64,000 bases of DNA from Parcubacteria group bacterium GW2011_GWA2_43_11 (GTDB lineage Bacteria > Patescibacteriota > Minisyncoccia > Phycocordibacterales > UBA12088): the NCBI GenBank assembly GCA_000998805.1, contig LCFC01000002.1:5784-69783 (forward strand), given 5' to 3'. The notes under the pieces are model-generated. The model searched no databases and was not told the DNA's origin. It saw nothing but the letters and a program-made list of their open reading frames with translations. Shown one piece after another: positions 8,375 to 60,960 of this stretch (positions are counted from its first letter, which is position 1; the number at the start of each line of letters is the position of its first letter). A program made the translations under genes and the position numbers.

Positions 8375-9358
8375 TTAAATACCTTCGTCTCGCAACATTT
8401 CTGCAGCTTTTTTTGCAGAACGTGAAAGCTTATTTGGTACTTGGATTTCTATTTTAACGTACAGGTCCCCCCTCGTTTCAATTTTCTGTGAACTTCCGAG
8501 AAGAGTATCAGTGAGCTTGATAGAGAGTGGCATAACGATATCATACCCTTCCTTTTTGAAACGATGGTCTTGCTTGACATGGATTTTCACATAGAGGTCA
8601 CCAGGCACACCCCCCGATACAGCTTCTCCTCCGCCCGTCATACGTATCATCTCTCCATTGTTAATTCCTGAAGGAACTGCAATAGTCATCTCTTCTTCTC
8701 GGCGCATCACTCCCGCACCTTTACAGGTAGGACACTTTTCTTTTGGAATAAAACCTTTTCCAAAACACACTTCGCATTCACGTGTCGAAGAGAAAGCACC
8801 AAACATGGTTTGCTTTGTCTCATGGACCTTTCCTGCACCATTACATCTTTCACAGGTAACTGTATCAGTCCCTACCTTGGCTCCAGACCCTTTACACACT
8901 TCACAGGTACCAGTCTTCATGAGAAGTACGCGACGTTCCACACCAAAGACAGACTCTTTAAACGTCAGTTCAATATCAATTGAGATATCCCTTCCCCTTT
9001 TCCGCTCCGCACTACGCCCCCCACCACCGAAAATGTCTCCGAAAATATCTCCAAAGTCAAACTCAACATGCTGACCTCCTCCGCCAAAGCCTTGTGTAAA
9101 ACCGGAAAAGTCAAAGCCACCTGCACCTTGTCCACCTCCAGCACCGTTAAACGTCCTGCCGTAAGCATCGTACTCTGCGCGTTTTTTGTCGTCACCCAAG
9201 ACACTGTACGCCTCACCTATCTCTTTGAAACGTTTCTCATCGCCACCTTTTTTATCCGGATGGTACTTATGAGCAAGGCCTCGAAAAGCCTTTTTTATCT
9301 CTTCCTTGGAAGCACTTTTATCAACACCAAGAATGCTGTAGTAATCTTTATTGCTCAT
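8375..9358 (-). CDS. dnaJ: Chaperone DnaJ
   Basis: J-domain with HPD (KYHPDKK), a G/F-rich linker, and four CxxCxGxG zinc motifs (CEVCKGSG, CERCNGAG, CEVCFGKG, CPTCKGAG). At 327 aa it is shorter than typical DnaJ, with a compact C-terminal domain. Confidence 0.95.
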   Translation of the reverse strand: MSNKDYYSILGVDKSASKEEIKKAFRGLAHKYHPDKKGGDEKRFKEIGEAYSVLGDDKKRAEYDAYGRTFNGAGGGQGAGGFDFSGFTQGFGGGGQHVEFDFGDIFGDIFGGGGRSAERKRGRDISIDIELTFKESVFGVERRVLLMKTGTCEVCKGSGAKVGTDTVTCERCNGAGKVHETKQTMFGAFSSTRECEVCFGKGFIPKEKCPTCKGAGVMRREEEMTIAVPSGINNGEMIRMTGGGEAVSGGVPGDLYVKIHVKQDHRFKKEGYDIVMPLSIKLTDTLLGSSQKIETRGDLYVKIEIQVPNKLSRSAKKAAEMLRDEGI

Positions 9359-9383
9359 ATCTATGATTTTTATCTGTATGTTT

Positions 9384-9504
9384 AGGACTTACGCAAACGA
9401 GTGCAGTTCTAGGAAAACGAACAAAAAGGAGTGAGTCCCGCCACGGCGGGATGAACGACATTTTGTGAAGTTTGACAACGAAATGCGCCATTTGCGTATG
9501 TCCT
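9384..9504 (+). repeat. R-family element copy R1 (TIR - core hairpin A - TIR), 121 nt
   Basis: AGGACTTACGCAAACG...CATTTGCGTATGTCCT termini. The core is ACAAAAAGGAGTGAGTCCCGCCACGGCGGGATGAACGACATTTTGT. It fills the dnaK-dnaJ spacer and ends 3 nt from the dnaK stop codon. Confidence 0.9.
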
Positions 9505-9507
9505 ATA

Positions 9508-11397
9508 TTATTCTGTTTCAGCATCGCGTACCGTACCCTTATCTTCTTTGTTGGAATCATCATCCTTTTTCTCCGTAGTATCTTTTGAAGCATCGCCTTG
9601 TTTACTTATAGCCTCACCAATTTTAGATACCGATGTCGAAAGCGCGTCGGAAGCATTTCGTATAGCCTGACGATCCGTACCCTCGTTTGTTTTTTTCAAC
9701 GCATCAATTTTTTCTTGAACTTCTTTTTTCAAATCCTCGCCGACTTTATCTCCATACTCCTTGAGCGACTTCTCTGAGGTATATATAAGTTGCTCTGCAA
9801 TGTTTTTGGTCTCAATAAATTCACGTTTTTCTTTATCTTCCTTTTCATGAGTCTCAGCATCGCCTTGCATACTCTTAATATCACTTTCAGAGAGTCCTGA
9901 ACTCGCTTCTATTTTTATCGACTGTTCTTTATTTGAAGCTTTATCCTTAGCGGTCACTTTCAAGATTCCGTTCGCATCTACATCAAAGCTTACCTCAATC
10001 TGAGGCATACCTCTCGGTGCAGGTGGAATGCTGTCAAGAATAAATCGTCCGAGTGATTTGTTGTCTGCTGCCATTGCGCGCTCACCCTGCGTGATGTGAA
10101 TTTCTACCTGTGTTTGGTTATCAGCCGCGGTGGAAAAGGTTTGACTTCTCTGTGTAGGGATGGTCGTGTTGCGCTCTATAAGCTTTGTCGATACACCTCC
10201 CATAGTCTCAATACCAAGGGAGAGTGGAATAACATCAAGAAGGAGAACATCCTTTACATCACCCTGTAGGATACCTGCTTGTATAGCCGCGCCGTTCGCC
10301 ACCACCTCATCCGGGTTGATGGTTTTGTTAGGCTCTTTTCCAAACAATTCTTTTACCACTTTTACGATGGCAGGCATGCGGGTCTGTCCTCCTACGAGAA
10401 TAATCTCATCAATCTCTTCCTTCTTAAACGGAGATGCTTCTATGGCTCGTTTCGTAATAGCGATAGAACGCTGAATGAACTCATCTGCAAGTTCTTCGAG
10501 CTTGGTACGATTCAATTTAAGTAACAAATGCTTTGGTCCGTTTGCGTCAGAGGTGATGAACGGGATGTTGATTTCGGTATCCATAACAGTAGATAGTTCC
10601 ATCTTTGCCTTTTCTGCGGCCTCATCAAGCCTTTGTAGAGCGAGTGGGTCTTTCGTAACATCGATACCCGATTCTTTCTTAAATTCCTCGGCAATCCAAC
10701 GCACTATTTTTTGGTCGATATCTCGACCACCCATGTGCGCATCACCATCGGTACTCTTTACCTCAATAACGTCATCTCCTACTTCAAGTACAGACACGTC
10801 AAACGTACCACCACCGAAGTCAAAGACCACTATTTGTTCGTCTTTTTTCTTGTTGAATCCATATGCCAGAGCCGCCGCTGTAGGCTCGTTGATGATACGT
10901 AGGACTTCTAGGCCTGCTATCTTTCCTGCGTCTTTGGTAGCTTGTCTCTGTGAATCGTTAAAGTATGCAGGAACCGTAATCACCGCTTGGGTGATTTTCT
11001 CACCGAGCTTTCGCTCAGCATCCGCCTTCAGCTTCTGAAGAATCATCGCACTTATCTCCTCAGGTCGATAGTCTTTTTCACCCATCTTTATGAGTACACC
11101 GCCGTTGTCCGCTTTATTTACTTTATAGGCGACTATTTCCTTGTCTTTCTGAACAGCTTCCTCGTCATATGAGTGTCCGATGAATCGCTTGATACCATAT
11201 ATAGTGTTTTCCGGATTGGTAACAGCTTGTCGCTTTGCCACCACACCTACCGCACGTTCCTTCGTTTTTGAAATAGACACGACAGAAGGCGTGGTGCGAT
11301 TCCCTTCTTCATTCTCAATTATTTTTGGTTCACCTCCCTCAATAACAGCCATAGCAGAGTTCGTGGTACCAAGGTCAATTCCTAAAATTTTAGACAT
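9508..11397 (-). CDS. dnaK: Chaperone DnaK (Hsp70)
   Basis: 629 aa with [17 protein letters not shown] and other Hsp70 signatures throughout. Confidence 0.98.
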
Positions 11398-12743: not shown

Positions 12744-12761
12744 GCACATTTGGGTGGTATT

Positions 12762-12790
12762 AAAACCCTTCGTTCTGAACGAAGGGTTTT
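12762..12790. terminator. Bidirectional hairpin terminator between convergent genes
   Basis: AAAACCCTTCG-TTCTGAA-CGAAGGGTTTT forms an 11-bp stem with A/T runs on both sides. It overlaps the ung stop codon. Confidence 0.6.
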
Positions 12791-13457
12791 ACCATGCAAT
12801 TATTTTTTTACCATTCGCACGCAAGTACTCATTCGCGCGACTAAAATGCTTGCACCCAAAGAAACCATTGTACGCACTGAAGGGTGAAGGGTGTGTGGCT
12901 TCAAGCACAAGGTGTTTTTTTGCATCTATTAGTTCCCTCTTGGCCTTTGCATAGTTACCCCAGAGCATGAAGACGACATGTTCTTTTTCGTTACTTATCT
13001 TTCGTATCACTGAATTAGTAAACTCTTCCCAGCCTTTGTTCTGATGACTACCAGGTTGCCCTGCGCGCACCGTGAGCGTGGCATTGAGAAGTAGTACACC
13101 TTGCTCTGCCCACTTCTCTAGATTGCCCGTAGTTGGTATGGAAATACCTAAGTCTGCGTGTAGTTCTTTGTAGATATTTTGAAGTGACGGTGGCACGGTG
13201 ACACCCTCAGGTACCGAAAAGCAGAGGCCGTGTGCTTGTGCCGTACCGTGGTACGGGTCTTGCCCTAGTATTACAACTTTCACCTTCACAAACGGACACA
13301 AATCAAACGCATTAAAAATATATTTCGGAGGTGGGTAGACTTTCGCTACCTTGTATTCACTTTTCACAAATTCAGAAAGTGTTCTCCACTCAGGACTTTC
13401 AAACCGCTCTTGGAGAGCTATTTTCCACGATTCTTCTATTCGTACTTCATTATTCAT
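12789..13457 (-). CDS. ung: Uracil-DNA glycosylase (family 1)
   Basis: 222 aa with GQDPYHG, the water-activating loop, and HPSPFSA (the HPSPLS-type motif). Confidence 0.95.
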   Translation of the reverse strand: MNNEVRIEESWKIALQERFESPEWRTLSEFVKSEYKVAKVYPPPKYIFNAFDLCPFVKVKVVILGQDPYHGTAQAHGLCFSVPEGVTVPPSLQNIYKELHADLGISIPTTGNLEKWAEQGVLLLNATLTVRAGQPGSHQNKGWEEFTNSVIRKISNEKEHVVFMLWGNYAKAKRELIDAKKHLVLEATHPSPFSAYNGFFGCKHFSRANEYLRANGKKIIAW

Positions 13458-16137: not shown

Positions 16138-16386
16138 AGGATTACGCAAACGGATACAGTTCGACTTGTCCTCCGTAGCTCCCGGAGGAGCGGAGGAGGA
16201 GGAAAACGAACAAAATGGAGCGCATCCCGCCACAGGCGGGATAGACGACATTTTGTGAAGTTTGACGACGAAATGCAACCTAATTTTTAACGAACGCAGG
16301 GAGTACCTGCGCGTGCGCATGGTTCTTGTGCCCTGTGGGTATAAAAATGGGAACGCTCTTGCGGTACGCCGATTGTATGAGTTCTA
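16138..16386 (+). repeat. R-family element copy R2 (TIR - F - core A - C with an extra 36-nt insert - degenerate TIR), about 249 nt
   Basis: Opens with AGGATTACGCAAACGG and contains ACAAAATGGAGCGCATCCCGCCACAGGCGGGATAGACGACATTTTGTGAAGTTTGACGACG. The right end CGCCGATTGTATGAGTTC is a decayed TIR that abuts the umuD-like stop codon. Confidence 0.85.
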
Positions 16387-17001: not shown

Positions 17002-17176
17002 AGGATTTACGCAAACGGGTGCAGTTCGACTTGTCCGCCGTAGCTCTCGGAGGAACGAAGGTGGAGGCGTCCAAGCAAAATGGAATGAGTTGTATTAACA
17101 ATACTACAAGAGACATTTTTGACGGGCAACGCCTGCCTGCGCAGACAGGATGAAATTCACCCGTTTTCGTAAGTCG
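17002..17176 (+). repeat. R-family element copy R3 (TIR - F - core B - extra hairpin - TIR), 175 nt
   Basis: AGGATTTACGCAAACGGG...CCCGTTTTCGTAAGTCGT termini. The core is GCAAAATGGAATGAGTTGTATTAACAATACTACAAGAGACATTTTTG. It ends 4 nt from the lexA stop codon. Confidence 0.88.
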
Positions 17177-17180
17177 TGTA

Positions 17181-17750
17181 TTATGCTCCATACGTACGTA
17201 TCACACTCCTAACCACGCCACCTATTTCGAGAGAAAACTGAGGCCACAAGTCGGGATAGTCTTCATTCGCTGCTTCTAGATACTTTTTACCTTTCTTCTC
17301 TCGTAAGTATTTAACTGTCCAATCACCGTCAAGGTTGGCGACGACAATATCACCCACTTTTGCTTGACTTGTACGCTCCACAAGCAAAAGGTCACCTTCG
17401 TAAATACCCGCATCCACCATAGAAAGACCCTTCACCCGCAGAAGATACATTTTTTCTCTTTTTCCCAACAAAAGCTCATCCACCGAAATTCTATCGAGTG
17501 CCATCTCTTCTGCTGGTGAAGGAAACCCCGCTTCTATGAGTCCAAGCAACGGCACTGTCTCTGTAAGTGCAACAGGCACCAATTTCCCTCGTGAATCTCT
17601 TTCTACCACACCAGCATCAACAAGTTTCTCTACCACCTTGGCAACAGCATTTTTGGAAGCAAAACCAAAGAGTGTACACATTTCACTATAGCCAGGCATG
17701 CGTTTATGCTTCTGAAAAAATGTTCTAAGTATCGTTGTGTATTGTTCCAT
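17181..17750 (-). CDS. lexA: LexA repressor
   Basis: N-terminal wHTH, an Ala-Gly cleavage site (IEAGFPSP), the catalytic Ser in KGLSM and Lys in TVKYL. The ATG at 17750 (MEQYTT...) is preferred. The ORF-track start at 17792 is a TTG lying inside repeat R4. Confidence 0.9.
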   Translation of the reverse strand: MEQYTTILRTFFQKHKRMPGYSEMCTLFGFASKNAVAKVVEKLVDAGVVERDSRGKLVPVALTETVPLLGLIEAGFPSPAEEMALDRISVDELLLGKREKMYLLRVKGLSMVDAGIYEGDLLLVERTSQAKVGDIVVANLDGDWTVKYLREKKGKKYLEAANEDYPDLWPQFSLEIGGVVRSVIRTYGA

Positions 17751-17759
17751 ATGTATTTT

Positions 17760-17880
17760 GAGACTTACGTAAACGGCGCATTTATGTGTCAAACTTCACA
17801 AAATGTCGTTCATCCCGCCGTGACGGGACTCACTCCTCTTTGTTCGTTTTCCTAGAACTGCATCCGTTTGCGTAAGCCCT
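17760..17880 (-). repeat. R-family element copy R4 (TIR - core A - TIR), 121 nt; the only copy in inverted orientation
   Basis: The plus strand reads GAGACTTACGTAAACGG CGCATTT...GTCAAACTTCACAAAATGTCGTTCATCCCGCCGTGACGGGACTCACTCC...CCGTTTGCGTAAGCCCT, which is the reverse complement of the R1/R10 layout. Confidence 0.9.
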
Positions 17881-17918
17881 ATCCTATAATTCGTGTTACA
17901 GCAGTCCATACCTACTAC

Positions 17919-18942: not shown

Positions 18943-18957
18943 GTTTTTTCGCAAATA

Positions 18958-19560
18958 TTATTCCGTGCGATTGAGACTCGTCCATAGACCATTCCACCAA
19001 TCAGAAGGACTTTGAGAGTAAATAGCTTCACTTATTTTCTTTGATGATTTAAATTGCAGTAAGTTGATTTGGGCGTTTCCTTTTCCATCCTTACCTCGTA
19101 ACCATATACTGGCTTCTTTGTTACCTTGCCACTCATACTCACGCAACAGAAGTGCTTGTTCAAGTAAATCTGCATCTTTTGTAATTCGTGCTTCTTTACT
19201 TTCCCTTTTTTCATACTCTTCCTGAAGAGATTTCATTAAGGGGTACGGCACTGCCTCCATCTGATCTTTTATTATCTCTTGCGTATGTACCGTCACATAC
19301 CTCTTGTGTATCCAGTTATGGTCATTGCTCCGTGTCTCACCTAAATCGTGGAAAAGAGCCATCATTACCGTTTTGTACGGGTCAGCTCCCTCTTCCTGCG
19401 CAAGTATCCACGCAATGAGAGCAACACGATATGAATGTGAGGCAATGTTATCTGACATATCATCGGTCAATAAAGTCTGCCGATGCACACGAGCAAGTTT
19501 GCGCATAGTGCCAGCCTCAAAAAGAAAATTAACTATTTTTGTATTTTTTTCGTCAGACAT
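18958..19560 (-). CDS. HD-domain phosphohydrolase (YfbR-like 5'-nucleotidase family)
   Basis: 200 aa with HSYRVALIA and LFHDLGETRSNDHN (the H...HD...D pattern). Confidence 0.75.
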   Translation of the reverse strand: MSDEKNTKIVNFLFEAGTMRKLARVHRQTLLTDDMSDNIASHSYRVALIAWILAQEEGADPYKTVMMALFHDLGETRSNDHNWIHKRYVTVHTQEIIKDQMEAVPYPLMKSLQEEYEKRESKEARITKDADLLEQALLLREYEWQGNKEASIWLRGKDGKGNAQINLLQFKSSKKISEAIYSQSPSDWWNGLWTSLNRTE

Positions 19561-22511: not shown

Positions 22512-23489
22512 TTATATAAATAAAAGAAAAAAGCCAAATGCAATGAGTGGAATAGCTATCGCTTTGTGTATCATATCTTGCGTTGTGAGATTCTCACCAA
22601 AATCTCTACTGAGTTTACTTCCAAAAATAACACTGATGATGAGCAAAAAAAGATATTGCAATCCACCCAGTGCCTGCACGAGCGCAACATCCCCAAACTC
22701 AATAGCTTTAAGGATAATAATACTTGCGAAACCTGCGAGCACTTTGTTGCCAAAGACCAACAACCCATCACGTCCTTTTGCACGTGAGGTGCGCGCGGTA
22801 ATTTTGTGCCAGTATTCTGGAATAAGAAGCATAGAAAGTGCAATAAAAACAATACCCAATCTTGTCCAGAGGAACGCATTGTCAAAATTAGTCAGTTCAA
22901 CAAAAGATTTGAACACCACGTAATGCAATCCAAACATGAGAGATGCATGGGTGGTCGAAAACATGACACGCCACGAAAATCGAAATTGAGAGATTAAAAT
23001 TGTTCCAACCATCAACAAGAAAAAACCACCTACAAACTCACGGGGGAGAGGTGTTGCAAGAAACATGTATGAAAAAAGCAACGTGAAAAAAGCGGTAAGT
23101 CCACCTGTCACTGGTACAACGTCAGATGCATCAGACAGACGCAAAGCATCAAAAAACGACATGAGTGCTGAGAAAAAAGTGTACCCTGCAAGTATTGCAA
23201 ATGAAAACGCTATAAGGTCTGGGGGACTCACGTTAATAAACGATGGCATAGAAAGTCCTTCAATAGGTATCGGCAACCAACTAAAAAAGTAGATGAGTAT
23301 CGCACCGGAAGAAAGTACACTCACGTAGAATGCATACACAAAAGGACGGAATACGACGGTTTCTGACGTCACTATGTATTTGTCAAATAGGGCAACAATT
23401 GCATTTAAAAATTGCCCAACAATAGCGAGTGCAAGCCAAAGACTCATACTAATATTGTACCTGAAAAAAACCAATACATTTGTAAACAT
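22512..23489 (-). CDS. EamA/DMT-superfamily membrane protein
   Basis: 325 aa with about 10 TM helices in two similar halves. The start could be the internal Met (MSLWLALAIVGQ). Confidence 0.65.
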   Translation of the reverse strand: MFTNVLVFFRYNISMSLWLALAIVGQFLNAIVALFDKYIVTSETVVFRPFVYAFYVSVLSSGAILIYFFSWLPIPIEGLSMPSFINVSPPDLIAFSFAILAGYTFFSALMSFFDALRLSDASDVVPVTGGLTAFFTLLFSYMFLATPLPREFVGGFFLLMVGTILISQFRFSWRVMFSTTHASLMFGLHYVVFKSFVELTNFDNAFLWTRLGIVFIALSMLLIPEYWHKITARTSRAKGRDGLLVFGNKVLAGFASIIILKAIEFGDVALVQALGGLQYLFLLIISVIFGSKLSRDFGENLTTQDMIHKAIAIPLIAFGFFLLFI

Positions 23490-23495
23490 ATTAAC

Positions 23496-23520
23496 ATGAA
23501 GAAGGTTGAACCTTCTTCAT
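23496..23520. repeat. REP-like palindrome, copy 1
   Basis: ATGAAGAAGGTTGAACCTTCTTCAT. The arms ATGAAGAAGG/CCTTCTTCAT pair perfectly. It lies about 45 nt upstream of the RAYT-like gene. Confidence 0.85.
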
Positions 23521-23565
23521 AGAGCTTTATACTATAAATATATTTTCTATATTTAATTTTTGCTT

Positions 23566-24303
23566 ATGCAACGCGAACCGATTGAGACAGACGGTATTTA
23601 TCACATTTATAATCGTGGTGTTGATAAACGAATTACTTTTGATGATGACGATGAGCATAGATATTTTATTCATTTCTTATACACTCTAAATGATTCGAAA
23701 AACACTTCTACTAATATTAGGAGGGATTTTCTATCAATAACAAGATCTAACAATTATAAAACTGCCACTAATGAAGAAGGTTCAACCTTCTTCATTAGTA
23801 AACCTAAAAGATATAAAAGAGACATGTTGGTCGATATATATGCTTTTGTATTAATGCCAAATCATTACCATCTACTTCTCAAACAAAAAGTAGACAACGG
23901 AGTTTCAAAATTTATGCAGAAGTTAGGTACTGGGTATACCATGATGTTCAATGAAAAACACGAACGTTCAGGTTCCTTGTTTCAGGGTCGATATAAAAGT
24001 AAACACATCTTAAGTGATGAACAGCTGAGATATATCACGCATTACATACATCTTAACCCTCTTGGAAAAAATAACTTATTAAATCTAGAAGAGAGTGTAG
24101 AATATTTAAAAAAATATAAATGGAGTAGCTTCCCTGACTATGTTGAAATTAAGAATTTCCCATCAGTTACTTCTCGAGATTTTATTTTTTCTCTTTTTGA
24201 AGATAAGAATAAATATTTAAAGAGCATCAGTTCAGTACTTGAAAAAAATGACCTTTTGTCACATGTTGATTCAAAAGACTGTATTGATTACAGCGACTCT
24301 TAA
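23566..24303 (+). CDS. REP-associated tyrosine transposase-like protein (RAYT / IS200-like HUH-Y1, COG1943 type)
   Basis: YHIYNRG N-terminal motif, the HUH motif in LMPNHYHLLL, GRYKSK, and a C-terminal Tyr helix YITHYIHLNP. The ATG at 23566 is used because the ORF-track start is a TTG. The gene is flanked by REP-like palindromes. Confidence 0.8.
   Translation: MQREPIETDGIYHIYNRGVDKRITFDDDDEHRYFIHFLYTLNDSKNTSTNIRRDFLSITRSNNYKTATNEEGSTFFISKPKRYKRDMLVDIYAFVLMPNHYHLLLKQKVDNGVSKFMQKLGTGYTMMFNEKHERSGSLFQGRYKSKHILSDEQLRYITHYIHLNPLGKNNLLNLEESVEYLKKYKWSSFPDYVEIKNFPSVTSRDFIFSLFEDKNKYLKSISSVLEKNDLLSHVDSKDCIDYSDS
23771..23795. repeat. REP-like palindrome, copy 2, in-frame inside the RAYT-like CDS
   Basis: ATGAAGAAGGTTCAACCTTCTTCAT. 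It encodes NEEGSTFFI within the linker between the YHIYNRG and HUH motifs. Confidence 0.85.
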
Positions 24304-24307
24304 GATT

Positions 24308-25573
24308 TTAAACAGAAGAGAATGAAGAAGGTTGAACCTTCTTCATGTTTTGGGTGGAATGAGAAAGAATGAGGTCACGGTAGACGAACGCGGAGGGGCG
24401 GATGGTGCGCTCGAGGGTGTCGTAGTTTACCTCTACGAGACCGAACCGTTTGTCAAAACCGTGCGCCCATTCATAGTTATCAAGCAAAGACCAATACATA
24501 AAACCCCGAACATCAGCACCGTTTTTTATTGCTTTACCAATACCACCTACTGTTTTTCTAATATAGTCCGCTCGAAAAGCATCTTTTGCGTCTGCACAAC
24601 CACACTCCTCGACGTACACAGGTTTATTATATCGTTGTACTTCCATTATGGCATCGTAAATACCTTCAGGTCGCAAGTCCCATCCCATATCTGTCTTTGG
24701 ATAGTTCGTTTTGCTACCAAAGTCAGTGTAAAAATAATAATTCAAACCAATACTGTCTGAGTTTTTATATATCTTTTTCAAATACCTATGGGTCATATTC
24801 CACATCTGGAATTTTGCCACAAGTTTATAAAAGGGATTCCCGTGAGCATTAAAATAATGCACTTGAAACACTACGGTTACATGTATATGAGGTGCAATCT
24901 CTTTAATCGCACTATACGCAGTGTTGTGTGCACGCGCCAAAACATTCGCAAGTGTAAAAAATTTAATTATTTCCCCCCAATCTGTAGTCGAGTTCTTACT
25001 CAATTCCTTATCATTTGGTATTCGGGCCAATGCAATCAATGGAAAACGTTGAAACGGAGGGAATGTCCCGCGTACCCACCCGTTTATAACTGTCGAATAC
25101 GGTTCATTCAGTGTTGTGAAGTGTGTAGCCAAGTCTGACAAGCGAGAAACAACATATGCACAATACCGTGCAAATATTTCTGGAAAATCCTTGTGCTCAA
25201 TACCACCTTTCGCATCTAGCCAACTAGGAATCGTCCAATGCCACAATGTCACACTTGGCTCAAGATTTCTTTCTCTTAGCGCTCTCAAAACACTTCTGTA
25301 ATGTTCTATTTCCCTATCATCAAACTTCCCTTCCTCGGGCTCAATGCGTGACCACTCTATAGAAAATCTATGTGCGTTGTGTCCGAGAGACTTTGCAATA
25401 TCAAAATCTTGCTCGTAGCGATTGTAGTGGTCGCACGCCTTCCCACACACAGGCACTTTGCCTTCACGAGCGCTCTTCGCCCAGTCATTGTTTTCAATTC
25501 CTCCTTCTACTTGATAGGCAGATGTAGCTGCGCCCCACAGAAACGTATCTGGAAAGACTTTTTTTTCTTGCAT
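24308..25573 (-). CDS. GH1 beta-glucosidase
   Basis: FLWGAATSAYQVEGG, TLNEP (acid/base) and YVEECG (nucleophile region). The ATG at 25573 (MQEKKVFPDTF) is preferred over the ORF-track start at 25603. The last residues (MKKVQPSSFSSV) are encoded by REP copy 3. Confidence 0.9.
   Translation of the reverse strand: MQEKKVFPDTFLWGAATSAYQVEGGIENNDWAKSAREGKVPVCGKACDHYNRYEQDFDIAKSLGHNAHRFSIEWSRIEPEEGKFDDREIEHYRSVLRALRERNLEPSVTLWHWTIPSWLDAKGGIEHKDFPEIFARYCAYVVSRLSDLATHFTTLNEPYSTVINGWVRGTFPPFQRFPLIALARIPNDKELSKNSTTDWGEIIKFFTLANVLARAHNTAYSAIKEIAPHIHVTVVFQVHYFNAHGNPFYKLVAKFQMWNMTHRYLKKIYKNSDSIGLNYYFYTDFGSKTNYPKTDMGWDLRPEGIYDAIMEVQRYNKPVYVEECGCADAKDAFRADYIRKTVGGIGKAIKNGADVRGFMYWSLLDNYEWAHGFDKRFGLVEVNYDTLERTIRPSAFVYRDLILSHSTQNMKKVQPSSFSSV
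24322..24346. repeat. REP-like palindrome, copy 3 (forms the 3' end of the GH1 CDS)
   Basis: ATGAAGAAGGTTGAACCTTCTTCAT, identical to copy 1. Confidence 0.85.
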
Positions 25574-25595
25574 TGCTAATACGATACCATTAGGT

Positions 25596-25630
25596 ATACA
25601 CACAAAGAAAGAGGCATCCCGAAAGATGCC
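25596..25630 (-). terminator. Candidate rho-independent terminator for the 25750-26148 gene
   Basis: The minus strand reads AGGGGCATC-TTTCGG-GATGCCTCT followed by TTCTTTGTGTG. Confidence 0.45.
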
Positions 25631-25706
25631 CCTTTAAAACAGACCGTCAACCCTTAGGTCAACGTGTCAAACCACACCACTGTGGCTGACAAAAGACAAA
25701 AAGTGT

Positions 25707-25731
25707 ATGAGTAAGGTTGAACCTTCCTCAT
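25707..25731. repeat. REP-like palindrome, copy 4 (variant)
   Basis: ATGAGTAAGGTTGAACCTTCCTCAT. One arm change is compensated (A>G with T>C) and one is not. Confidence 0.75.
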
Positions 25732-27691: not shown

Positions 27692-27726
27692 AAGGTCGAC
27701 GTTTTTTGTCGACCTTGTTTATTTAT
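27692..27726 (+). terminator. Rho-independent terminator
   Basis: AAGGTCGAC-GTTTTTT-GTCGACCTT followed by GTTTATTTAT. Confidence 0.7.
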
Positions 27727-27744
27727 AAAAAAATATGTACGTGT

Positions 27745-27986
27745 AGGACTTACGCAAACGGATGCGACCTAATTTTTAACGACCGCAGGGAGTATAAAAA
27801 TGGAAATACCCTTTTGGTGTAATTCGAGGCGCACAAACAAAATACTACGAGTCGTATGAATAGTACGGTGAGGAGTATTTTGTGTAGCGCAACGATGAAG
27901 TACGACCAATTTTTCTTACGATCCGCCAGCTGGCGGAGAATTAGAAAAATGAAGTACTCTTGTGGTGCGCCGTTTTCGTAAGTCCT
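27745..27986 (+). repeat. R-family element copy R5 (TIR - C - core B variant - D - TIR), 242 nt
   Basis: AGGACTTACGCAAACGG...CCGTTTTCGTAAGTCCT termini. It contains module C (GCGACCTAATTTTTAACGACCGCAGGGAGTATAAAAATGG) and module D (CGACCAATTTTTCTTACGATCCGCCAGCTGGCGGAGAATTAGAAAAATGAAG). It ends 3 nt from the ddl stop codon. Confidence 0.9.
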
Positions 27987-27989
27987 AGA

Positions 27990-28961
27990 TTATTTTCGGG
28001 CGTAGGCACGCTCCACCAAATGCCCAAGGAAGCTCGGCAACGTCGCACCCACAGCCTCGACGGTCTTAGGGAGAAGTGAGGTGGGAGTAAGCCCTGGGAG
28101 ACTATTCACCTCGAGGAAGTACACCCCGTCTCGTGCAACGATAAAATCACTCCGCGAATAGTCACGAAGTCCAAGAGTTTTGTGTACATGCTTGGCGGCA
28201 TGCAGGAGAGCGTCGGTCGTTTCTCTAGTGAATGGTGCGGGACAAAGCTCACGCGCATTCCCTCCACACTTTTCTTTATAATCAAAAAGACTTGAATCAG
28301 TGGTGACTATTTCTATCGGAGGAAATGCATACAGATCTTCCCCACGAAATCCATCCGCTACAGCAACAGTTGCTTCTCTGCCCACAATGTACTTTTCAAT
28401 GAGGACATACTCGGTGTGCGTAAAGGCAATGGTCAGAGCATAGAGCAACTCATCAAACGAGGTCACGAGAGCAGTAGCTACAGACGAGCCACCGTTTACG
28501 GGCTTAACTATGCAAGGTAATGGAAACGTTTGGAAAAGCATAATGACACTTTGCTTACTCATTTCATCTTTATGCAAAAGTCGATGCGGGGCGTGTTTAA
28601 ATGGTGCATCTTTCAAGTATCCTTTGGTAAGCGCTTTGTTCATAGCAATAGCTGAAGACAAGGACCCGCTCCCTGTATAGCGACACCCATGAGAATCCAG
28701 AAAACGCTGTACCTCACCATCCTCACCATACTTCCCATGAAGTGCATTAAACATGACATCTACTTGATCGAGTACTCTTGTCGCCTCTACAGGCATACCG
28801 CGCATATGCCACTGTCCTGACCTATCTACAAGGATATCTTTGACCTCATACCGATCTTTTGAGAGATTTTGCAATACCGATTGTCCCGTCTTGAGTGAGA
28901 CTTCATATTCGGCAGATGGACCACCGCGTAATACCCCTACACGCATCTTGTACATGTACAC
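27990..28961 (-). CDS. ddl: D-alanine--D-alanine ligase
   Basis: 323 aa with an ATP-grasp fold. Signatures include RVGVLRGGPSAEYEVSL, HGKYGEDG and FLEVNSLPGLT. Alternative Met starts exist at 28955 and 28946. Confidence 0.9.
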   Translation of the reverse strand: MYMYKMRVGVLRGGPSAEYEVSLKTGQSVLQNLSKDRYEVKDILVDRSGQWHMRGMPVEATRVLDQVDVMFNALHGKYGEDGEVQRFLDSHGCRYTGSGSLSSAIAMNKALTKGYLKDAPFKHAPHRLLHKDEMSKQSVIMLFQTFPLPCIVKPVNGGSSVATALVTSFDELLYALTIAFTHTEYVLIEKYIVGREATVAVADGFRGEDLYAFPPIEIVTTDSSLFDYKEKCGGNARELCPAPFTRETTDALLHAAKHVHKTLGLRDYSRSDFIVARDGVYFLEVNSLPGLTPTSLLPKTVEAVGATLPSFLGHLVERAYARK

Positions 28962-28976
28962 TAGTATAGCAGAAGC

Positions 28977-30242
28977 TTAACCAAGAAGATGTTTAGCTCG
29001 CTTTTTTGTGTGGACTGCGAGTGAAAACCTATGTGCCTCTGCATTTGCGAGCAATATGTCACCTTGATACAGCGTCCGAATCTTAATAGGTCCATGGAGC
29101 GAGCGAGGGTTGTGGTGTGCATCCTTCGTCACTGCTATGAGCGGTATCGCGACACCTGCTTCAGCAAGTACTTTCTTTGCGGTATTTAGCTGTGCTATAC
29201 CGCCATCGAGCACAATGATTCTCGGATACTGCCACTCTGGGTGTGCAAGTCTTCTCTCTAGAAGCTCCTTGAGTGCGCCGGTATCGCTTCCCTCTACAGC
29301 AGTACGGATAGTAAAGGTGCGGTACTCTTTCTTTTGTGCCTCACCACCCACTACCGCCACCATAACCCCAACCGTGTTTTTCCCCCCGAGGTGCGCGACG
29401 TCGTACCCTTCTATGCGAATAGCATCGGTAACTCCTTCTCCTCGCTCCTTCCGGATGAGTGACACATCTTCTATATGTTGAAGTGCAAAAAGTTGCTTCT
29501 TTGCGATATGAGCATTCTCAAATTGTTCTTGCTTTGCAAACCGTCGCATGTCTCGTTCTAGTGTTACAACCACAGATTGTAACTTTCCGTCAAAGATAGT
29601 TTTAATATGTCGTATATTCCTCCTGTACATCTCTTTTGTTATCGATGCGTTCGGATACACACCAATTGATTGATTAAAACGGAGTTTGCTGTCATTCTTC
29701 GCCATGAGCTCATCTACTGGACGCTTCGTATCATAGTACGGAAAAATCTTCCGGATTATTTTAAGCGCCTGTTTAAACTGCGTCGCATGTGGAAAGGGAC
29801 CATAGACCAATGGTTCAACTTTTTTTCCTATTCCTGTATTCCGTGCCACGAGCTCGTTGTAGCGCATTGGCAGTTCCTTGCCCCGCACGGTCAACAGCCG
29901 TGGATACGCCTCATGTATCGTGATGATGAGAAAGTTAAAACTCTTGTCATCTTTATCGCGAACGTTAAACGGCGGTTTAAGCTCTTTGATACATTTTGCT
30001 TCCAATATAAGAGCCTCAAGTACCGAATCTGTCTGGCGAAAGTCTACGCGTACTGCCCGCTCTACCATAGCAACCATTTGATTACCACGGGCAGAAGCTA
30101 GTGTCGACGCAAAGTAACTGCGCACCCTGTCTTTGAGAGAGGTCGCTTTCCCGACGTAGAGCACCTCCTGCTTTGGACCTAGGAAAAAGTAGACTCCGGA
30201 TGCATCAGGAAGTTTTTGTATGCTTGAATGATTTAATATCAT
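28977..30242 (-). CDS. uvrC: Excinuclease ABC subunit C, short form lacking the C-terminal (HhH)2 domain
   Basis: 421 aa with a GIY-YIG domain (GVYFFLG...LYVGKATSLKDRVRSYF), a UVR-like helix (FENAHIAKKQLFALQHI) and an RNase H-like endonuclease domain (IEGYDVAHLGG). The ORF ends before any HhH motif. Confidence 0.85.
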   Translation of the reverse strand: MILNHSSIQKLPDASGVYFFLGPKQEVLYVGKATSLKDRVRSYFASTLASARGNQMVAMVERAVRVDFRQTDSVLEALILEAKCIKELKPPFNVRDKDDKSFNFLIITIHEAYPRLLTVRGKELPMRYNELVARNTGIGKKVEPLVYGPFPHATQFKQALKIIRKIFPYYDTKRPVDELMAKNDSKLRFNQSIGVYPNASITKEMYRRNIRHIKTIFDGKLQSVVVTLERDMRRFAKQEQFENAHIAKKQLFALQHIEDVSLIRKERGEGVTDAIRIEGYDVAHLGGKNTVGVMVAVVGGEAQKKEYRTFTIRTAVEGSDTGALKELLERRLAHPEWQYPRIIVLDGGIAQLNTAKKVLAEAGVAIPLIAVTKDAHHNPRSLHGPIKIRTLYQGDILLANAEAHRFSLAVHTKKRAKHLLG

Positions 30243-30252
30243 GATATTGGAT

Positions 30253-30374
30253 GGGACTTATGCAAACGGATGCAGTTCGAGACGCCCTAGCAAAATGGAA
30301 CAAGTTGTATGAACAATACTACGAGAGACATTTTGTGCAGGGCAACGATGAAATGCGCCGTTTGCATAAGTCCC
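30253..30374 (+). repeat. R-family element copy R6 (TIR - core B - TIR), 122 nt, with a perfectly paired, doubly compensated TIR
   Basis: GGGACTTATGCAAACGG...CCGTTTGCATAAGTCCC termini. It fills the uvrA-uvrC spacer, lying 1 nt from the uvrA stop and 10 nt from the uvrC start. Confidence 0.92.
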
Positions 30375-30375
30375 A

Positions 30376-32961
30376 TTAGAGTACCTTTTTGAGATACTTA
30401 CTGGTATGAGAATCTTTACTTCGTGCCACCGTCTCGGGTGTACCCTTTGCTACAATGGTACCGCCTCCTACACCACCCTCAGGTCCTATGTCTATAATCC
30501 AGTCCGCAGACTTTATCACGTCAAGATTATGCTCTATGAGTACCACGGTATTACCTCGTTGTATAAGTGCATTTAGTACATCAAGAAGTTTTTTGACATC
30601 ATCATAGTGCAGACCGATTGTTGGTTCATCCAGAAGATATATTGTTTTTTCTGTGTGTGGTCGATAGAGTTCACTCGCAATCTTCACACGTTGTGCCTCA
30701 CCTCCCGAGAGTGTGTTTGCCGCTTGTCCAAGCTCGAGGTACTCAAGACCGACGTCGCTCAGAGTCTGAAGCCTATCGCTTATCTGCGGAATGTCTTTAA
30801 AAAATTCCAAACCATCCTCTACACTCATGTGCAAAATATCATAAATATTTTTCTTTTTGTACCGAACATCAAGGGTCTCTTTCATAAAACGCTTTCCGTC
30901 ACACACGTCACAAGTGACATACACCGTGGGCAAAAAGTGCATTTCCACCGCTATGGTGCCATTTCCCTGACATGCCTCACAACGTCCACCACCCTTACTT
31001 GTCGACACGTTAAACGAGAACCTCCCAGGCTTCCACCCGCGTGCTCGTGCTTCTTCTGTAGAGGTAAATAAATCTCGAACGTGCGTCCATACTCCCGTGT
31101 ACGTGGCGGGGTTACTCCGTGGAGTTCGTCCAATAGGACTCTGGTCCATAAGTACCACACGGGAGAGGTACTCTGTCCCAGTCAAACTTGAAATGTTATA
31201 CAACTTCGCAGTACGGAACTGTCTCTCGAGTCGTGCCCGTAAGTTTTTAAACAATAGCTCGTACATCAATGTAGACTTGCCAGAACCTGACACCCCCGTA
31301 ATGGCGACAAGTTTTCTGAGTGGAATATCAACATTCATTTCTTTTATGTTGAACGCATTGCCGTTTCGTATCCGAAGCCATCCAGCTTCTTCTTCACGGC
31401 GTTTTTCTGGAACTTCTATCTCTTCTTCCCCACGCAGGTAGGCAAGTGTTCGTGAACCACTCTCATTCTTTTTTGCGGTGAGCAAATCTTCGAGCCAGCC
31501 AGACACCACTACCTTGCCCCCGTGTATGCCTGCCCCTGGCCCTATATCCACGATATAGTCTGCGGAGAAAATAGTATCCTCGTCGTGTTCCACGACAATA
31601 ATCGTATTACCTAAATCACGTAGCGCAGTCAACGTTTTAATGAGCTTATCATTGTCTCTTTGGTGCAGTCCTATGGTCGGTTCATCCAGCACATAGAGAG
31701 CTCCTACCAAGCCTGATCCAAGCTGGCTCGCTAGGCGAATTCTCTGCGCCTCACCACCCGAGAGTGTGTTTGCGCGTCTATCAAGGGTAAGATAATCGAT
31801 GCCTACGTTGAGCATAAACTGCAATCGCGCATGTATCTCACGAAGCACTACAGACGCAATTTCTTTTTCTTTTGGTGTGAGCGTGAGCGTGTTCATAAAT
31901 GTTTGTGCGTCACGTATAGACAGAGAGGTGACGTCTACAATTGTCTTCCTAGTTTTTTTGTCTTTACCGAGAAAGACATGGAGCGCCTCAGGACGAAGTC
32001 GTTTCCCCTCACAGACAGGACAGATGTCATCATGGAAAAAACCGATTGTCCCCAAACCATTACACTCTGGACACGCGCCGTACGGAGAGTTAAATGAGAA
32101 AAGCCTTGGTTCAACTTCTGGAAACGAGGTCCCATCCTTTGGACAAATAAATTTTGAGGAAAGCGTCTGTAGTGTGCCGTCTGGTGCTTCTATTTCTATA
32201 AGCCCTTCTGATTCTCGAAGTGCAAGCTCGATAGCTTCTGCTAAACGCTCCTGTGCATCTTTCTTGGAACCAGTAAACTCCGAGACATAGAGCTCATCAA
32301 CCAACACACTAATGTCATGGCGCTTTTGTTTGCTGAGTACAATCTTTTCCCGTAATGAGTATTCGACGGTATCTATTTTCACTTTTTCGTACCCCTTCCC
32401 AAGCAGGTCATACAAGAGCTGGTAGTATTCACCTTTTCTTCCTACGACGACTGGTGCCCACAGACGCACCTTCCTATCATCGTAAGAAATACCCATTACC
32501 TCTTTATTGTTTTTTTCTCCTGAAATAAGAACACTCTCAAGCACTCTTTTCTGCATCTCTTCGTTTGAAAGCTTATGTATCGGCGTATCACACTTAGGGC
32601 AGTATGCCGTCCCAACACGTGCGTAGAGGATACGCATGTAGTCATACACCTCGGTAATGGTCGCAACGGTGGAACGAGGGTTATTCGATCTGGACTTTTG
32701 ATCTATCGAAATAGCCGGAGAAAGACCAAGTATTTCATCAACGTCAGGCTTTCGCATTTGATTTAGAAACTGTCGAGCATATGCCGAGAGTGATTCGACA
32801 TACCTCCTCTGCCCTTCCGCAAAAATAGTATCAAATGCGAGTGATGATTTTCCAGAACCAGAAAGACCAGTAAAAACCACCAGTTTGTTTCTAGGCATGG
32901 TCACAGAAATGTTCTGTAGATTGTGAGTGCGTGCACCCTTTACGTGTATGATGTCATCCAT
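30376..32961 (-). CDS. uvrA: Excinuclease ABC subunit A
   Basis: Two ABC ATPase modules ([26 protein letters not shown] x2) and zinc-finger Cys clusters. The ATG at 32961 ([15 protein letters not shown]) is preferred. The ORF-track start at 32982 is a TTG. Confidence 0.97.
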
Positions 32962-40353: not shown

Positions 40354-40364
40354 ACAACAATGAT

Positions 40365-40580
40365 AGGACTTACGCAAACGGATGCGACCTAATTTTCAAG
40401 GAGTGAAACGACTATGAAAATGGAAATGCCCTTGCGGTACAGTTCTAGGAAAGCGAACAAAATGGAGCGAGTCCCGCCACGGGCGGGATGAGAGATATTT
40501 TGTGAAGTTTGACAACGAGAATGCGACCAATTTTTCTTACGACTGTAAGGAGTTAGAAAAATGAAGTGCCCTCGTGGTGT
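40365..40580 (+). repeat. R-family element copy R7 (TIR - C - core A - D), right TIR missing
   Basis: AGGACTTACGCAAACGG, then module C with a covarying stem (AATTTTCA/TATGAAAAT), core A and module D. Homology to R5 stops at ...GTGGTG (40580), inside the ybeY ORF. Confidence 0.85.
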
Positions 40581-44624: not shown

Positions 44625-44879
44625 AGACCTACGCAAATGGATGCGACCAATTTTTCTTATGATCCGCCAGCGTGCGGAGAGTTAGAAAAATGAAGTACTC
44701 CTGCTCGCCCCGTATACAGCTATGCTGTTGTACTGGGGTGGTGCAATTCAAGGCGCCAGAACAAAATAGAATGAGTTGTATGAGTAATACTACGAGAGAT
44801 ATTTTGCGACGGGCCCTGTACTAGAGCGAAGCTTCAGTACGGGGCGGGCAACGATGAAGTGCGCCGTTTGCGTAGGTCA
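44625..44879 (+). repeat. R-family element copy R8 (TIR - D with nested hairpin - core B with nested hairpin E - TIR), 255 nt
   Basis: AGACCTACGCAAATGG...CCGTTTGCGTAGGTC termini. Nested hairpins lie at 44708-44738 and 44814-44844, the latter flanked by a duplicated CGGG. Confidence 0.9.
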
Positions 44880-44911
44880 TGTTACAGGCGCTGTTGTTGC
44901 AACTCCTTTCT

Positions 44912-45442
44912 TTACTCTTTATGGTTCGGCAAAGTCAGAGCAACACAGTTCCAAAAGCGTACTGAATGATTCATCTCTCTTAGGTGGCAAAGCTCGTGAA
45001 CTAAAAGGTAATCTTGTAAATGACTAGGTAAAAAAATAATCCTATAATCGAAATTCAAATTTCCTTTTTCTGAGCAACTTCCCCATCTGCTTGTATTCAC
45101 ACGTATGGATACACGATGGTACGTGTATCCATACACTCTATTCAGCTCTGTCAATCTAAGTTGCACAAACTTTCGTGCGGCTTCTTTGTGCTTCGTGTAG
45201 TGTTTTTTTCTTACATGAGTAGATACCGCTTGCGGGTACTTTTGGAGCACTGCCAAGAGCCAACTCTTTTTTTCAAGTATAAATTTTTCCGCTCCTCTTA
45301 ATGAAATCCAGTAAGGAACTGTGAGTGTTATTCTCCCCTCCCTCTGCACAGCAAGCGAATAGCTTTTTTGTTTCCTTCTCTTCCGAAGCGTGTACTCAAT
45401 AGTTTGATTGTCGATTACAAAGGTTCGTACTTGTTGCATCAA
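44912..45442 (-). CDS. YgjP-like (DUF45) M48-family metallopeptidase
   Basis: 176 aa with the HExxH motif in LLVHELCHLREMNHS. Confidence 0.75.
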   Translation of the reverse strand: MMQQVRTFVIDNQTIEYTLRKRRKQKSYSLAVQREGRITLTVPYWISLRGAEKFILEKKSWLLAVLQKYPQAVSTHVRKKHYTKHKEAARKFVQLRLTELNRVYGYTYHRVSIRVNTSRWGSCSEKGNLNFDYRIIFLPSHLQDYLLVHELCHLREMNHSVRFWNCVALTLPNHKE

Positions 45443-49094: not shown

Positions 49095-49136
49095 ACCGCA
49101 AGCAACTATTCAGTTGCTTGCGGTTGTCGTTTTTTG
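49095..49136 (+). terminator. Rho-independent terminator
   Basis: ACCGCAAGCAACT-ATTC-AGTTGCTTGCGGT followed by TGTCGTTTTTTG. Confidence 0.8.
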
Positions 49137-53967: not shown

Positions 53968-54039
53968 TGGCCCTATCGTCTAACGGTTAGGACATCGCCT
54001 TCTCAAGGCGGTAATCAGAGTTCGATTCTCTGTAGGGTC
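53968..54039 (+). tRNA. tRNA-Glu (anticodon CTC)
   Basis: Manual cloverleaf: acceptor GGCCCTA/TAGGGTC, D stem GTCT/GGAC, anticodon stem TCGCC/GGCGG with loop TTCTCAA, T arm CAGAG-TTCGATT-CTCTG, discriminator A. CCA is not encoded. Confidence 0.9.
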
Positions 54040-54046
54040 ACAAAGG

Positions 54047-54088
54047 TTAGAACAAAACACACTGCGAGCAAGCAGTGTGTTTTGTTCT
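54047..54088. other. Perfect 18-bp hairpin immediately downstream of the tRNA
   Basis: TAGAACAAAACACACTGC-GAGCAA-GCAGTGTGTTTTGTTCTA. It has the same ACAAAA...TTTTGT design as the hairpin at 53643-53677 and the R-family cores. Confidence 0.6.
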
Positions 54089-54351
54089 AGAAAACAAACT
54101 GCTTTGCTTTCGTACCTTTTGTGAGGTCGGAGCATATTTTCTGCTCTTTCCTAGAGCAGAAAATAGCCGAGGCGAGGTGTCGAAGAGCACTTAGTATTTT
54201 AGAAACGAAGTGTCCTAAAATACTTAGGAAAATTATACCAACCACAATTGAGTTAAACCCAATATATCTAATACAAACTTGATTCTTTTTTAAGATTTCA
54301 AATCAAATAACGGATTTCCACTTCATGATTGTTTTTTTCAGATTTTGTACT

Positions 54352-56919: not shown

Positions 56920-56947
56920 TTGCTTTTACTGATAAATAATATCTTCT

Positions 56948-57069
56948 AGGACTTACGCAAACGGGTGAAATTCAAGGCGCCCGAACAAAATAGAACGAGT
57001 TGTATGAATAATACTACGAGAGATATTTTGTGACGGGCAACGATGAAGTACACCGTTTCCGTAAGTCCT
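56948..57069 (+). repeat. R-family element copy R9 (TIR - core B - TIR), 122 nt
   Basis: AGGACTTACGCAAACGG...CCGTTTCCGTAAGTCCT termini. The core is ACAAAATAGAACGAGTTGTATGAATAATACTACGAGAGATATTTTGT. It fills the ftsI-murF spacer and ends 3 nt from the ftsI stop. Confidence 0.92.
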
Positions 57070-57072
57070 GGC

Positions 57073-60798: not shown

Positions 60799-60919
60799 AG
60801 GACTTTCCCAAACGTCGTACTTCTAGGAAAACGAACAAAATGGAGTGAGTCCCGCCACGGGCGGGATGAACGACATTTTGTGAAGTTTGACAACGAAATG
60901 CGGCGTTTGGGTAAGTCCC
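60799..60919 (+). repeat. R-family element copy R10 (TIR - core A - TIR), 121 nt
   Basis: AGGACTTTCCCAAACG...CGTTTGGGTAAGTCCC termini with a compensated G>C/C>G pair. Core A is identical to R1 apart from one base. It lies in the divergent mraZ / relA spacer. Confidence 0.92.
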
Positions 60920-60960
60920 ATTCTTGCTTGGAAAGAACAAATGTCGCATAGTGTACAAGT

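Follow-up and report, generated by a model that had tools for sequence, protein, structure and literature searches.

What does a transposase-like enzyme recognise when its gene keeps to one chromosomal position and carries the same short palindrome before, within and after its coding sequence? The question is raised by a locus in a 64-kb stretch of DNA (64,000 nucleotides, hereafter the window) from contig LCFC01000002.1 of the Parcubacteria group bacterium GW2011_GWA2_43_11. The original prediction, made from this sequence, described a gene of the repetitive extragenic palindrome (REP)-associated tyrosine transposase (RAYT) or IS200-like family within a cluster of four REP-like palindromes, and took it for the classical arrangement of a single RAYT gene flanked by its cognate REPs. 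Our analysis indicates that this identification is essentially right but incomplete, since it overlooked that one palindrome lies inside the gene; this internal copy is the most informative feature of the locus. The locus is probably a REPtron-like unit, in which a vertically inherited Y1 HUH enzyme of the RAYT kind is paired with its cognate hairpin; this assessment includes the autoregulatory proposals made below. The gene and the palindromes are positioned as follows, in window coordinates:

23496–23520: palindrome copy 1 (centre G), 46 nt 5′ of the start of the open reading frame (ORF) and 7 nt from the start of a divergent membrane-protein gene
23566–24303, plus strand: RAYT-like Y1 HUH gene, 245 aa, with the HUH residues H100/H102 and the catalytic-type tyrosine Y160
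23767–23799, core 23771–23795: palindrome copy 2 (centre C), a 33-nt perfect palindrome within the ORF, in frame
24322–24346: palindrome copy 3 (centre G), 19 nt past the stop codon and overlapping the 3′ end of a convergent glycosyl hydrolase family 1 (GH1) gene
25707–25731: palindrome copy 4, degenerate, upstream of the GH1 gene and downstream of a 132-aa gene

The 25-nt palindrome, ATGAAGAAGGTTGAACCTTCTTCAT, matches copies 1 and 3 exactly; the core of copy 2 is its reverse complement, and copy 4 has three mismatches, among them one compensatory change (A5–T21 to G–C) and one that breaks a pair. All four copies, including the loop variant at 23771 and the arm variant at 25707, are present where they had been predicted. 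They had also been said to surround the gene, which holds for copies 1 and 3, the pair that brackets the ORF, and not for copy 2, which lies within it. One hundred dinucleotide shuffles gave no match to ATGAAGAAGGTTGAACCTTCTTCAT. When folded as single-stranded DNA (ssDNA), the four copies form stems of 11–15 bp with loops of 3 nt, and the free energies of copies 1–4 are −9.8, −14.1, −10.0 and −5.6 kcal/mol, with z-scores from −4.7 to −8.9. There is no Rfam match at the hairpins, the sole Rfam match being a tRNA at 53969.

The enzyme gene, whose existing annotation reads only ‘Transposase’, contains all three of the motifs named in the prediction: YHIYNRG at residues 12–18, NHYHLLL with the HUH histidines at residues 99–105, and YITHYIHLNP of the tyrosine helix at residues 156–165. 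The protein matches the Pfam family Y1_Tnp (PF01797) with 43.1 bits, above the cut-off of 23 (E = 5.4e-11), and its single NCBIfam match is REP_Tyr_transpos (NF047646, 55.9 bits). Across 23 aligned homologues, H100, H102 and Y160 do not vary. The ratio of nonsynonymous to synonymous substitution rates (dN/dS), measured against a relative with a 95.5% identical protein, is 0.15, which indicates that the gene is functional. Selection on the enzyme is purifying, and its catalytic motifs are intact. We detected over 7,800 homologues, mostly in Patescibacteria, and the genome itself, which had appeared to belong to the candidate phyla radiation (CPR), does so (Parcubacteria group GW2011_GWA2_43_11 / GWC2_42_11, Rifle aquifer).

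Single-sequence searches of the PDB gave marginal matches, so that a fold comparison was needed. The AlphaFold model of the 245-aa protein (predicted template modelling score 0.76) has strands and a helix in the order expected of a Y1 HUH domain, and the best PDB match found by Foldseek is 4ER8, in which E. coli TnpAREP holds a REP hairpin (E = 4e-5). Next come the TnpA structures of IS608 and ISDra2 (E = 0.04–0.3). Residues ~170–245 (YKWSSFPDY...NFPSVT) form a conserved C-terminal extension with the general pattern YKWSS-F/Y-x-DY ... NFPSVT, in which W186, S187, S188, D191 and Y192 are invariant and which has no Pfam match. E. coli TnpAREP lacks this extension, the CPR protein being ~80 residues longer there. 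The extension could be the part of the protein that reads the palindrome.

The arrangement seen in the window recurs across the family. We compared 88 homologue loci, mostly from Patescibacteria, made up of 80 loci from genomes (among the matches listed), 7 closer loci and the window. A locus-specific perfect palindrome is present at the gene in 53 of the 88; it stands before the start codon in 51 of these, after the stop codon in 47 and inside the ORF in 41, and 34 loci have all three. The palindrome sequences vary from genome to genome around a common core, GA[AG]GT[TC][CG][AG]AC[CT]TC. Within a locus the copies agree: in 33 of 45 loci, at least 7 of 8 positions of the internal arm are those of the external copy of the same locus, whereas the mean identity of the internal arm to the external copies of other loci is 0.40. 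Single copies extend the palindrome outward with sequence particular to that copy, up to 45 nt.

The clearest case of this matching is the genome GCA_054008175.1, which encodes three paralogues that differ clearly among themselves and have only 53–58% identity each with the window protein. Their palindrome variants are ATGGTGAAGGTTSAACCTTCACCAT, ATGATAGAGGTTSAACCTCTATCAT and ATGGGTAGAGGTTSAACCTCTACCCAT, and each variant is found upstream of and within its own paralogue. The third copy lies directly past the stop codon in two of the paralogues and, in the remaining one, upstream of GH1, at the site of window copy 4. In L103 the position orthologous to copy 4 is likewise occupied by that genome's own palindrome variant. 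The palindrome copies thus change together in relatives, and do so specifically for each paralogue. The genome with three RAYT-like paralogues (L101) also carries a second, unrelated family of intergenic palindromes, AAAACGAAGGACSGTCCTTCGTTTT and a variant of it (8520–8548, 17693–17717 and 18945–18969), the core of which resembles the hairpins of the distant homologues L076 and L079.

The internal copy is translated. In the window its 33 nt are read in frame as TNEEGSTFFIS (residues 68–78). Internal copies across the family cluster at two sites, which in window numbering are residues ~62–82, between the first strand and the HUH strand, and residues ~167–178, just past the tyrosine helix. Both are linkers, and residues 53–76 of the model, into which the window copy falls, have a predicted local distance difference test score below 50, so that its loop is predicted to be disordered. 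Homologues read the DNA core in either of two frames, as EVGL/EVQP or as xGSTx, and the conserved item is therefore the DNA palindrome and not the peptide. Internal peptides in the window clade are mirror-symmetric by codon (N..I, E..F, G..T, D..I, R..S), as the translation of a palindrome must be. The window gene and its L100 counterpart share 68% of their nucleotides and are saturated at synonymous sites (pS 0.81); even so, the longest stretch over which they do not differ coincides exactly with the 25-nt internal palindrome. In this frame a centre G would give GGT TGA, a stop, and for this reason the internal site holds the loop variant with centre C. Over the family, the upstream, internal and downstream copies show no overall bias in the orientation of the centre base; the orientation is biased solely in cases that involve a stop codon or a TTGAAC −35 box.

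These features could mean that the internal copy is a working part of the system, one site of a three-site self-recognition circuit that serves autoregulation or self-limitation and co-evolves with the specificity of the enzyme. We regard this as a tentative proposal, and a doubtful one. If true, such a circuit would account for two things: that no other DNA in the gene is conserved as well as the internal palindrome, and that this palindrome tracks the paralogue in CPR genomes that number in the thousands.

The upstream copy overlaps a putative promoter. The loop of copy 1, TTGAAC (23506–23511), is a −35-like hexamer, and it is followed at a distance of 16 nt by a second element:

23528–23533, plus strand: TATACT, a −10-like hexamer, completing the putative promoter of the RAYT-like gene

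In L008, L010, L061 and L101–L104 the same layout takes a more regular form, with TTGAAC, a spacer of 17–19 nt, a perfect TATAAT and then the ATG 6–12 nt further on. A perfect TATAAT at that spacing accompanies 8 of 59 perfect upstream hairpins, compared with 1.2% at random upstream positions. The upstream hairpin would, by this sequence pattern, supply the −35 box of the gene, often for a leaderless transcript. As a separate matter, an antisense promoter arising from the internal copy was considered and rejected, because the minus-strand spacer that separates it from the nearest TATAAT in the window, at 21 nt, is too long.

The gene occupies a fixed chromosomal position, between two neighbours that are conserved in synteny:

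22512–23489, minus strand: membrane-protein gene, EamA-like in L106
24308–25573, minus strand: GH1 gene, convergent to the RAYT-like gene

The membrane-protein gene encodes 325 aa from its first ATG, whereas the 311-aa product given by gene callers begins at a later ATG. The order membrane gene – RAYT-like gene – GH1 ... Ddl–UvrC–UvrA–UvrB is kept in relatives with 65%, 53% and 49% protein identity, and another pair of homologues has a second conserved chromosomal position in common. Synteny conserved down to 49% identity argues against an active insertion sequence, and the gene is present only once in the window. From this pattern the gene appears to be vertically inherited and of the domesticated type, and the same behaviour has been described for domesticated RAYTs (PMC5581495). 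The palindrome has also entered a neighbouring gene. The last codons of GH1 are encoded by copy 3 (24308–24346, minus strand), so that its product ends in ...NMKKVQPSSFSSV before the stop; the GH1 C-terminus is likewise encoded by a hairpin in L092 (2613–2700, ending ...KKVQSSS) and in L100 (1673–1699). Since a hairpin encodes the C-terminus, the palindrome has replaced the native 3′ end of the neighbour gene.

Cognate palindromes are strongly concentrated at the gene. Their density is 6.3 per kb within 150 nt of it and 0.05–0.14 per kb out to 4 kb, a concentration of 100-fold at the gene. The 25-mer is nevertheless not confined to this locus: it occurs at 3 or more other kinds of locus, all without a RAYT-like gene, in related metagenomic contigs. 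The metagenome scan gave at least 13 matches to the 25-mer and missed known locus-bearing contigs. The dispersed copies include ones between convergent genes with A and T runs (type A), a doublet with a degenerate copy, and an isolated intergenic copy. One dispersed locus carries the R family of repeats that is also found in the window (see below), and another belongs to a small assembly that also contains a RAYT contig, which ties these loci to the window lineage. In L092 two hairpins separated by a 33-nt spacer stand where the window has a single hairpin, the result of a recent gain or loss. The palindrome is a low-copy element that is not limited to this locus.

Copies of type A are found in L087, L090, L095 and L097 (e.g. 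L090 2792–2824), where the 25-mer between convergent genes is flanked by 5–6 A on one side and six T on the other. Copies of this form look like bidirectional intrinsic terminators and may have been exapted.

The closest known system is the REPtron, the RAYT/TnpAREP gene flanked by REPs or bacterial interspersed mosaic elements, as in E. coli rayT (PDB 4ER8) and the Pseudomonas RAYT–REPIN pairs. Shared features are a Y1 HUH enzyme of the same fold, encoded by a single-locus, vertically inherited gene (PMC5581495) that cognate palindromes bracket, and a separate palindrome family for each of several paralogues within one genome, as reported for Pseudomonas. The CPR units differ in that their stems are perfect, without a bulge and without a GTAG or CGTC tag, and their copy number is low; their palindromes abut the ORF, the upstream one overlapping the −35 position, and one lies inside the ORF. 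In the E. coli K-12 rayT locus, analysed as a control, the REPs are imperfect (10 of 12 pairs), carry the GTAG tag and lie at least 14 nt from the ends of the ORF, and none is found inside the gene.

Other systems share particular features with this locus. Flanking repeats of only moderate abundance, with the flanking 16-mer present 12–14 times in the genome, characterise the RAYT-type genes of groups 1 and 4 (Bertels et al. 2017, PMC5581495) and the TIRtrons (Di Nocera et al. 2013, PMC3733652). In this abundance they are comparable with the low density seen here; no internal repeat copy has been described for them. In-frame REP inserts are known within other genes (PMC3733652). As with these intragenic REPs and the Rickettsia palindromic elements, a short palindromic repeat is here read in frame and translated, in the RAYT-like gene and at the GH1 C-terminus; here, however, the host gene is that of the presumed cognate enzyme itself. 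A further difference is that the inserts described here recur at two hot spots throughout a large family and change in step with the external copies. The IS200/IS605 TnpA proteins (IS608, ISDra2) share the HUH Y1 chemistry and the recognition of ssDNA hairpins at both ends of the gene, if the analogy holds. They differ in that the unit described here is not mobile, given its deep synteny, has the same palindrome at both ends and matches their structures more weakly (E = 0.04–0.3).

In the open-access literature we found no prior description of CPR RAYT-like genes with cognate palindromes, nor of a REP inside its own RAYT gene. What is new here is a RAYT-type unit with perfect, untagged, low-copy palindromes in its likely promoter, in its coding sequence and past its stop codon, all of which co-vary with the enzyme.

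A REPtron-like unit of this kind would work as follows. By analogy with E. coli TnpAREP, the enzyme would bind the palindrome as an ssDNA hairpin and cut and rejoin the adjacent DNA. Such events would spread a few copies, mostly near the gene, and would keep them matched to the specificity of the enzyme. The internal copy would be an in-frame insert tolerated in an unstructured linker, its orientation set by the avoidance of stop codons. With the loop of the upstream copy serving as the −35 box, protein binding or hairpin extrusion at that site would shut off the gene's own transcription, and we infer that the unit may regulate itself through its hairpins.

Several observations weigh against this reading. 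On the protein side, the 55.9 bits of the REP_Tyr_transpos match fall short of the NCBIfam equivalog cut-off of 80 bits and the single-sequence PDB match to 4ER8 is marginal (E = 0.88). The stems are perfect, with neither a bulge nor a GTAG-type tag, and no conserved flanking guide tetranucleotide was found across 18 aligned copies; E. coli TnpAREP requires both bulge and tag (PMC3479197). The classical arrangement that had been predicted is supported in that cognate palindromes bracket the gene, and is not fully supported in the form of the stems. Dispersal is low as well: the whole 64-kb window has no fifth copy of the 25-mer (in the other 61.7 kb), there are ~0.05 cognate palindromes per kb at 1–4 kb from the gene, and none was found beyond 4 kb in the 86 kb surveyed. 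The high-copy dispersal that defines REPs is thus not seen in the window, and relatives yield only a few dispersed copies. The constraint on the internal copy is not absolute, a synonymous change of GGT to GGC in L092 breaking one of its hairpin pairs. As for the promoter, the window −10 box agrees at 5 of 6 positions and has a 16-nt spacer, and promoter-like sites in the window region are no more numerous than in shuffles.

The main rival explanation is that the palindromes are duplex operators, which the protein, perhaps through its C-terminal extension, binds as a symmetric dimer to regulate itself and its neighbours, with nothing being mobilised. Much of the layout would suit this: the palindromes have perfect two-fold symmetry, one overlaps the −35 position, the copies crowd around the gene (6.3 per kb within 150 nt) and are little dispersed, and the paralogue-specific covariation is also expected of operator–repressor pairs. 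A pure repressor would not, however, need the HUH and tyrosine residues that are invariant here, and HUH Y1 enzymes bind single-stranded hairpins (PMC3479197). The copy-specific outward extension of the palindromes, up to 45 nt, fits a hairpin better, and dispersed copies and the gain or loss of a doublet exist. We consider the operator explanation unlikely on this evidence.

The case for an active insertion sequence of the IS200/IS605 type, in which the hairpins are the left and right ends and the whole gene transposes, is weaker still, and we think it very improbable. It would account for the Y1_Tnp domain, for hairpins at both ends of the gene like the subterminal hairpins of IS200/IS605, and for the several homologues in some genomes, but those paralogues are divergent (53–58% to the window protein) and not near-identical, the window has one copy only, the gene keeps its chromosomal position even in relatives with as little as 49% protein identity, and the structure is nearer to TnpAREP than to IS608 or ISDra2 TnpA.

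That the palindromes are ordinary terminators or mRNA-stabilising stem-loops, near the enzyme by chance or through a purely local duplication, has the least in its favour and seems hardly credible: copy 3 and the dispersed type A copies, with their A and T runs, do lie between convergent genes, and a terminator scan of the window flags copies 2 and 3, but every window copy lacks a proper T run, one copy lies inside an ORF and another precedes the promoter −10 box, the triad is found again, with a sequence particular to each locus, in 34 of 88 homologue loci, the variants are paralogue-specific, and the palindromes are concentrated 100-fold at the gene.

The REPtron-like reading bears on the role that RAYTs play for their hosts and on how specificity for REP hairpins evolves. 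With more than 7,800 homologues, this CPR clade offers many natural enzyme–hairpin pairs, including three orthogonal pairs in one genome, and because each gene displays the recognition sequence in its own promoter, coding sequence and 3′ end, the specificity code is directly testable. The layout may help to reveal what these transposase-like enzymes recognise, and it suggests a simple form of autoregulation in which a hairpin loop is the −35 box. Very small, repeat-poor genomes retain such systems at a fixed locus. Orthogonal HUH–hairpin pairs have practical appeal too, as sequence-specific tags that attach covalently to ssDNA.

The window contains other repeats. The prediction had asked which hairpins the enzyme mobilises, in view of the much more abundant R family, the elements of which lie at the following window positions:

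9361–9511, 16139–16365, 17004–17184, 17759–17888 and 27722–27993: R family elements
30230–30377, 40362–40579, 44626–44883, 56925–57076 and 60821–60922: R family elements, continued

These measure 100–270 nt; with their terminal inverted repeats GGACTTACGCAAACGG ... CCGTTTGCGTAAGTCC and the GC-rich hairpins in their interior, they look like miniature inverted-repeat transposable elements; they are also present in the close relatives L089, L092, L094 and L096. They have no sequence in common with the 25-nt palindrome, and nothing ties them to the RAYT-like enzyme. Other long perfect palindromes in the window, with stems of 13–18 bp and sequence unrelated to the 25-mer, lie at 54048–54089, 12761–12791, 45103–45134 and 49095–49124. 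The first of these comes directly after the tRNA gene (53969–54040), and all are probably terminators.

The RAYT-like gene also stands amid DNA-damage genes (window ~14000–36000, as seen in L001–L006), which include a Y-family polymerase with IMS domains, a LexA-like S24 peptidase, a staphylococcal-type nuclease, UvrA, UvrB and UvrC. Such a neighbourhood may matter for an enzyme whose substrate is ssDNA.

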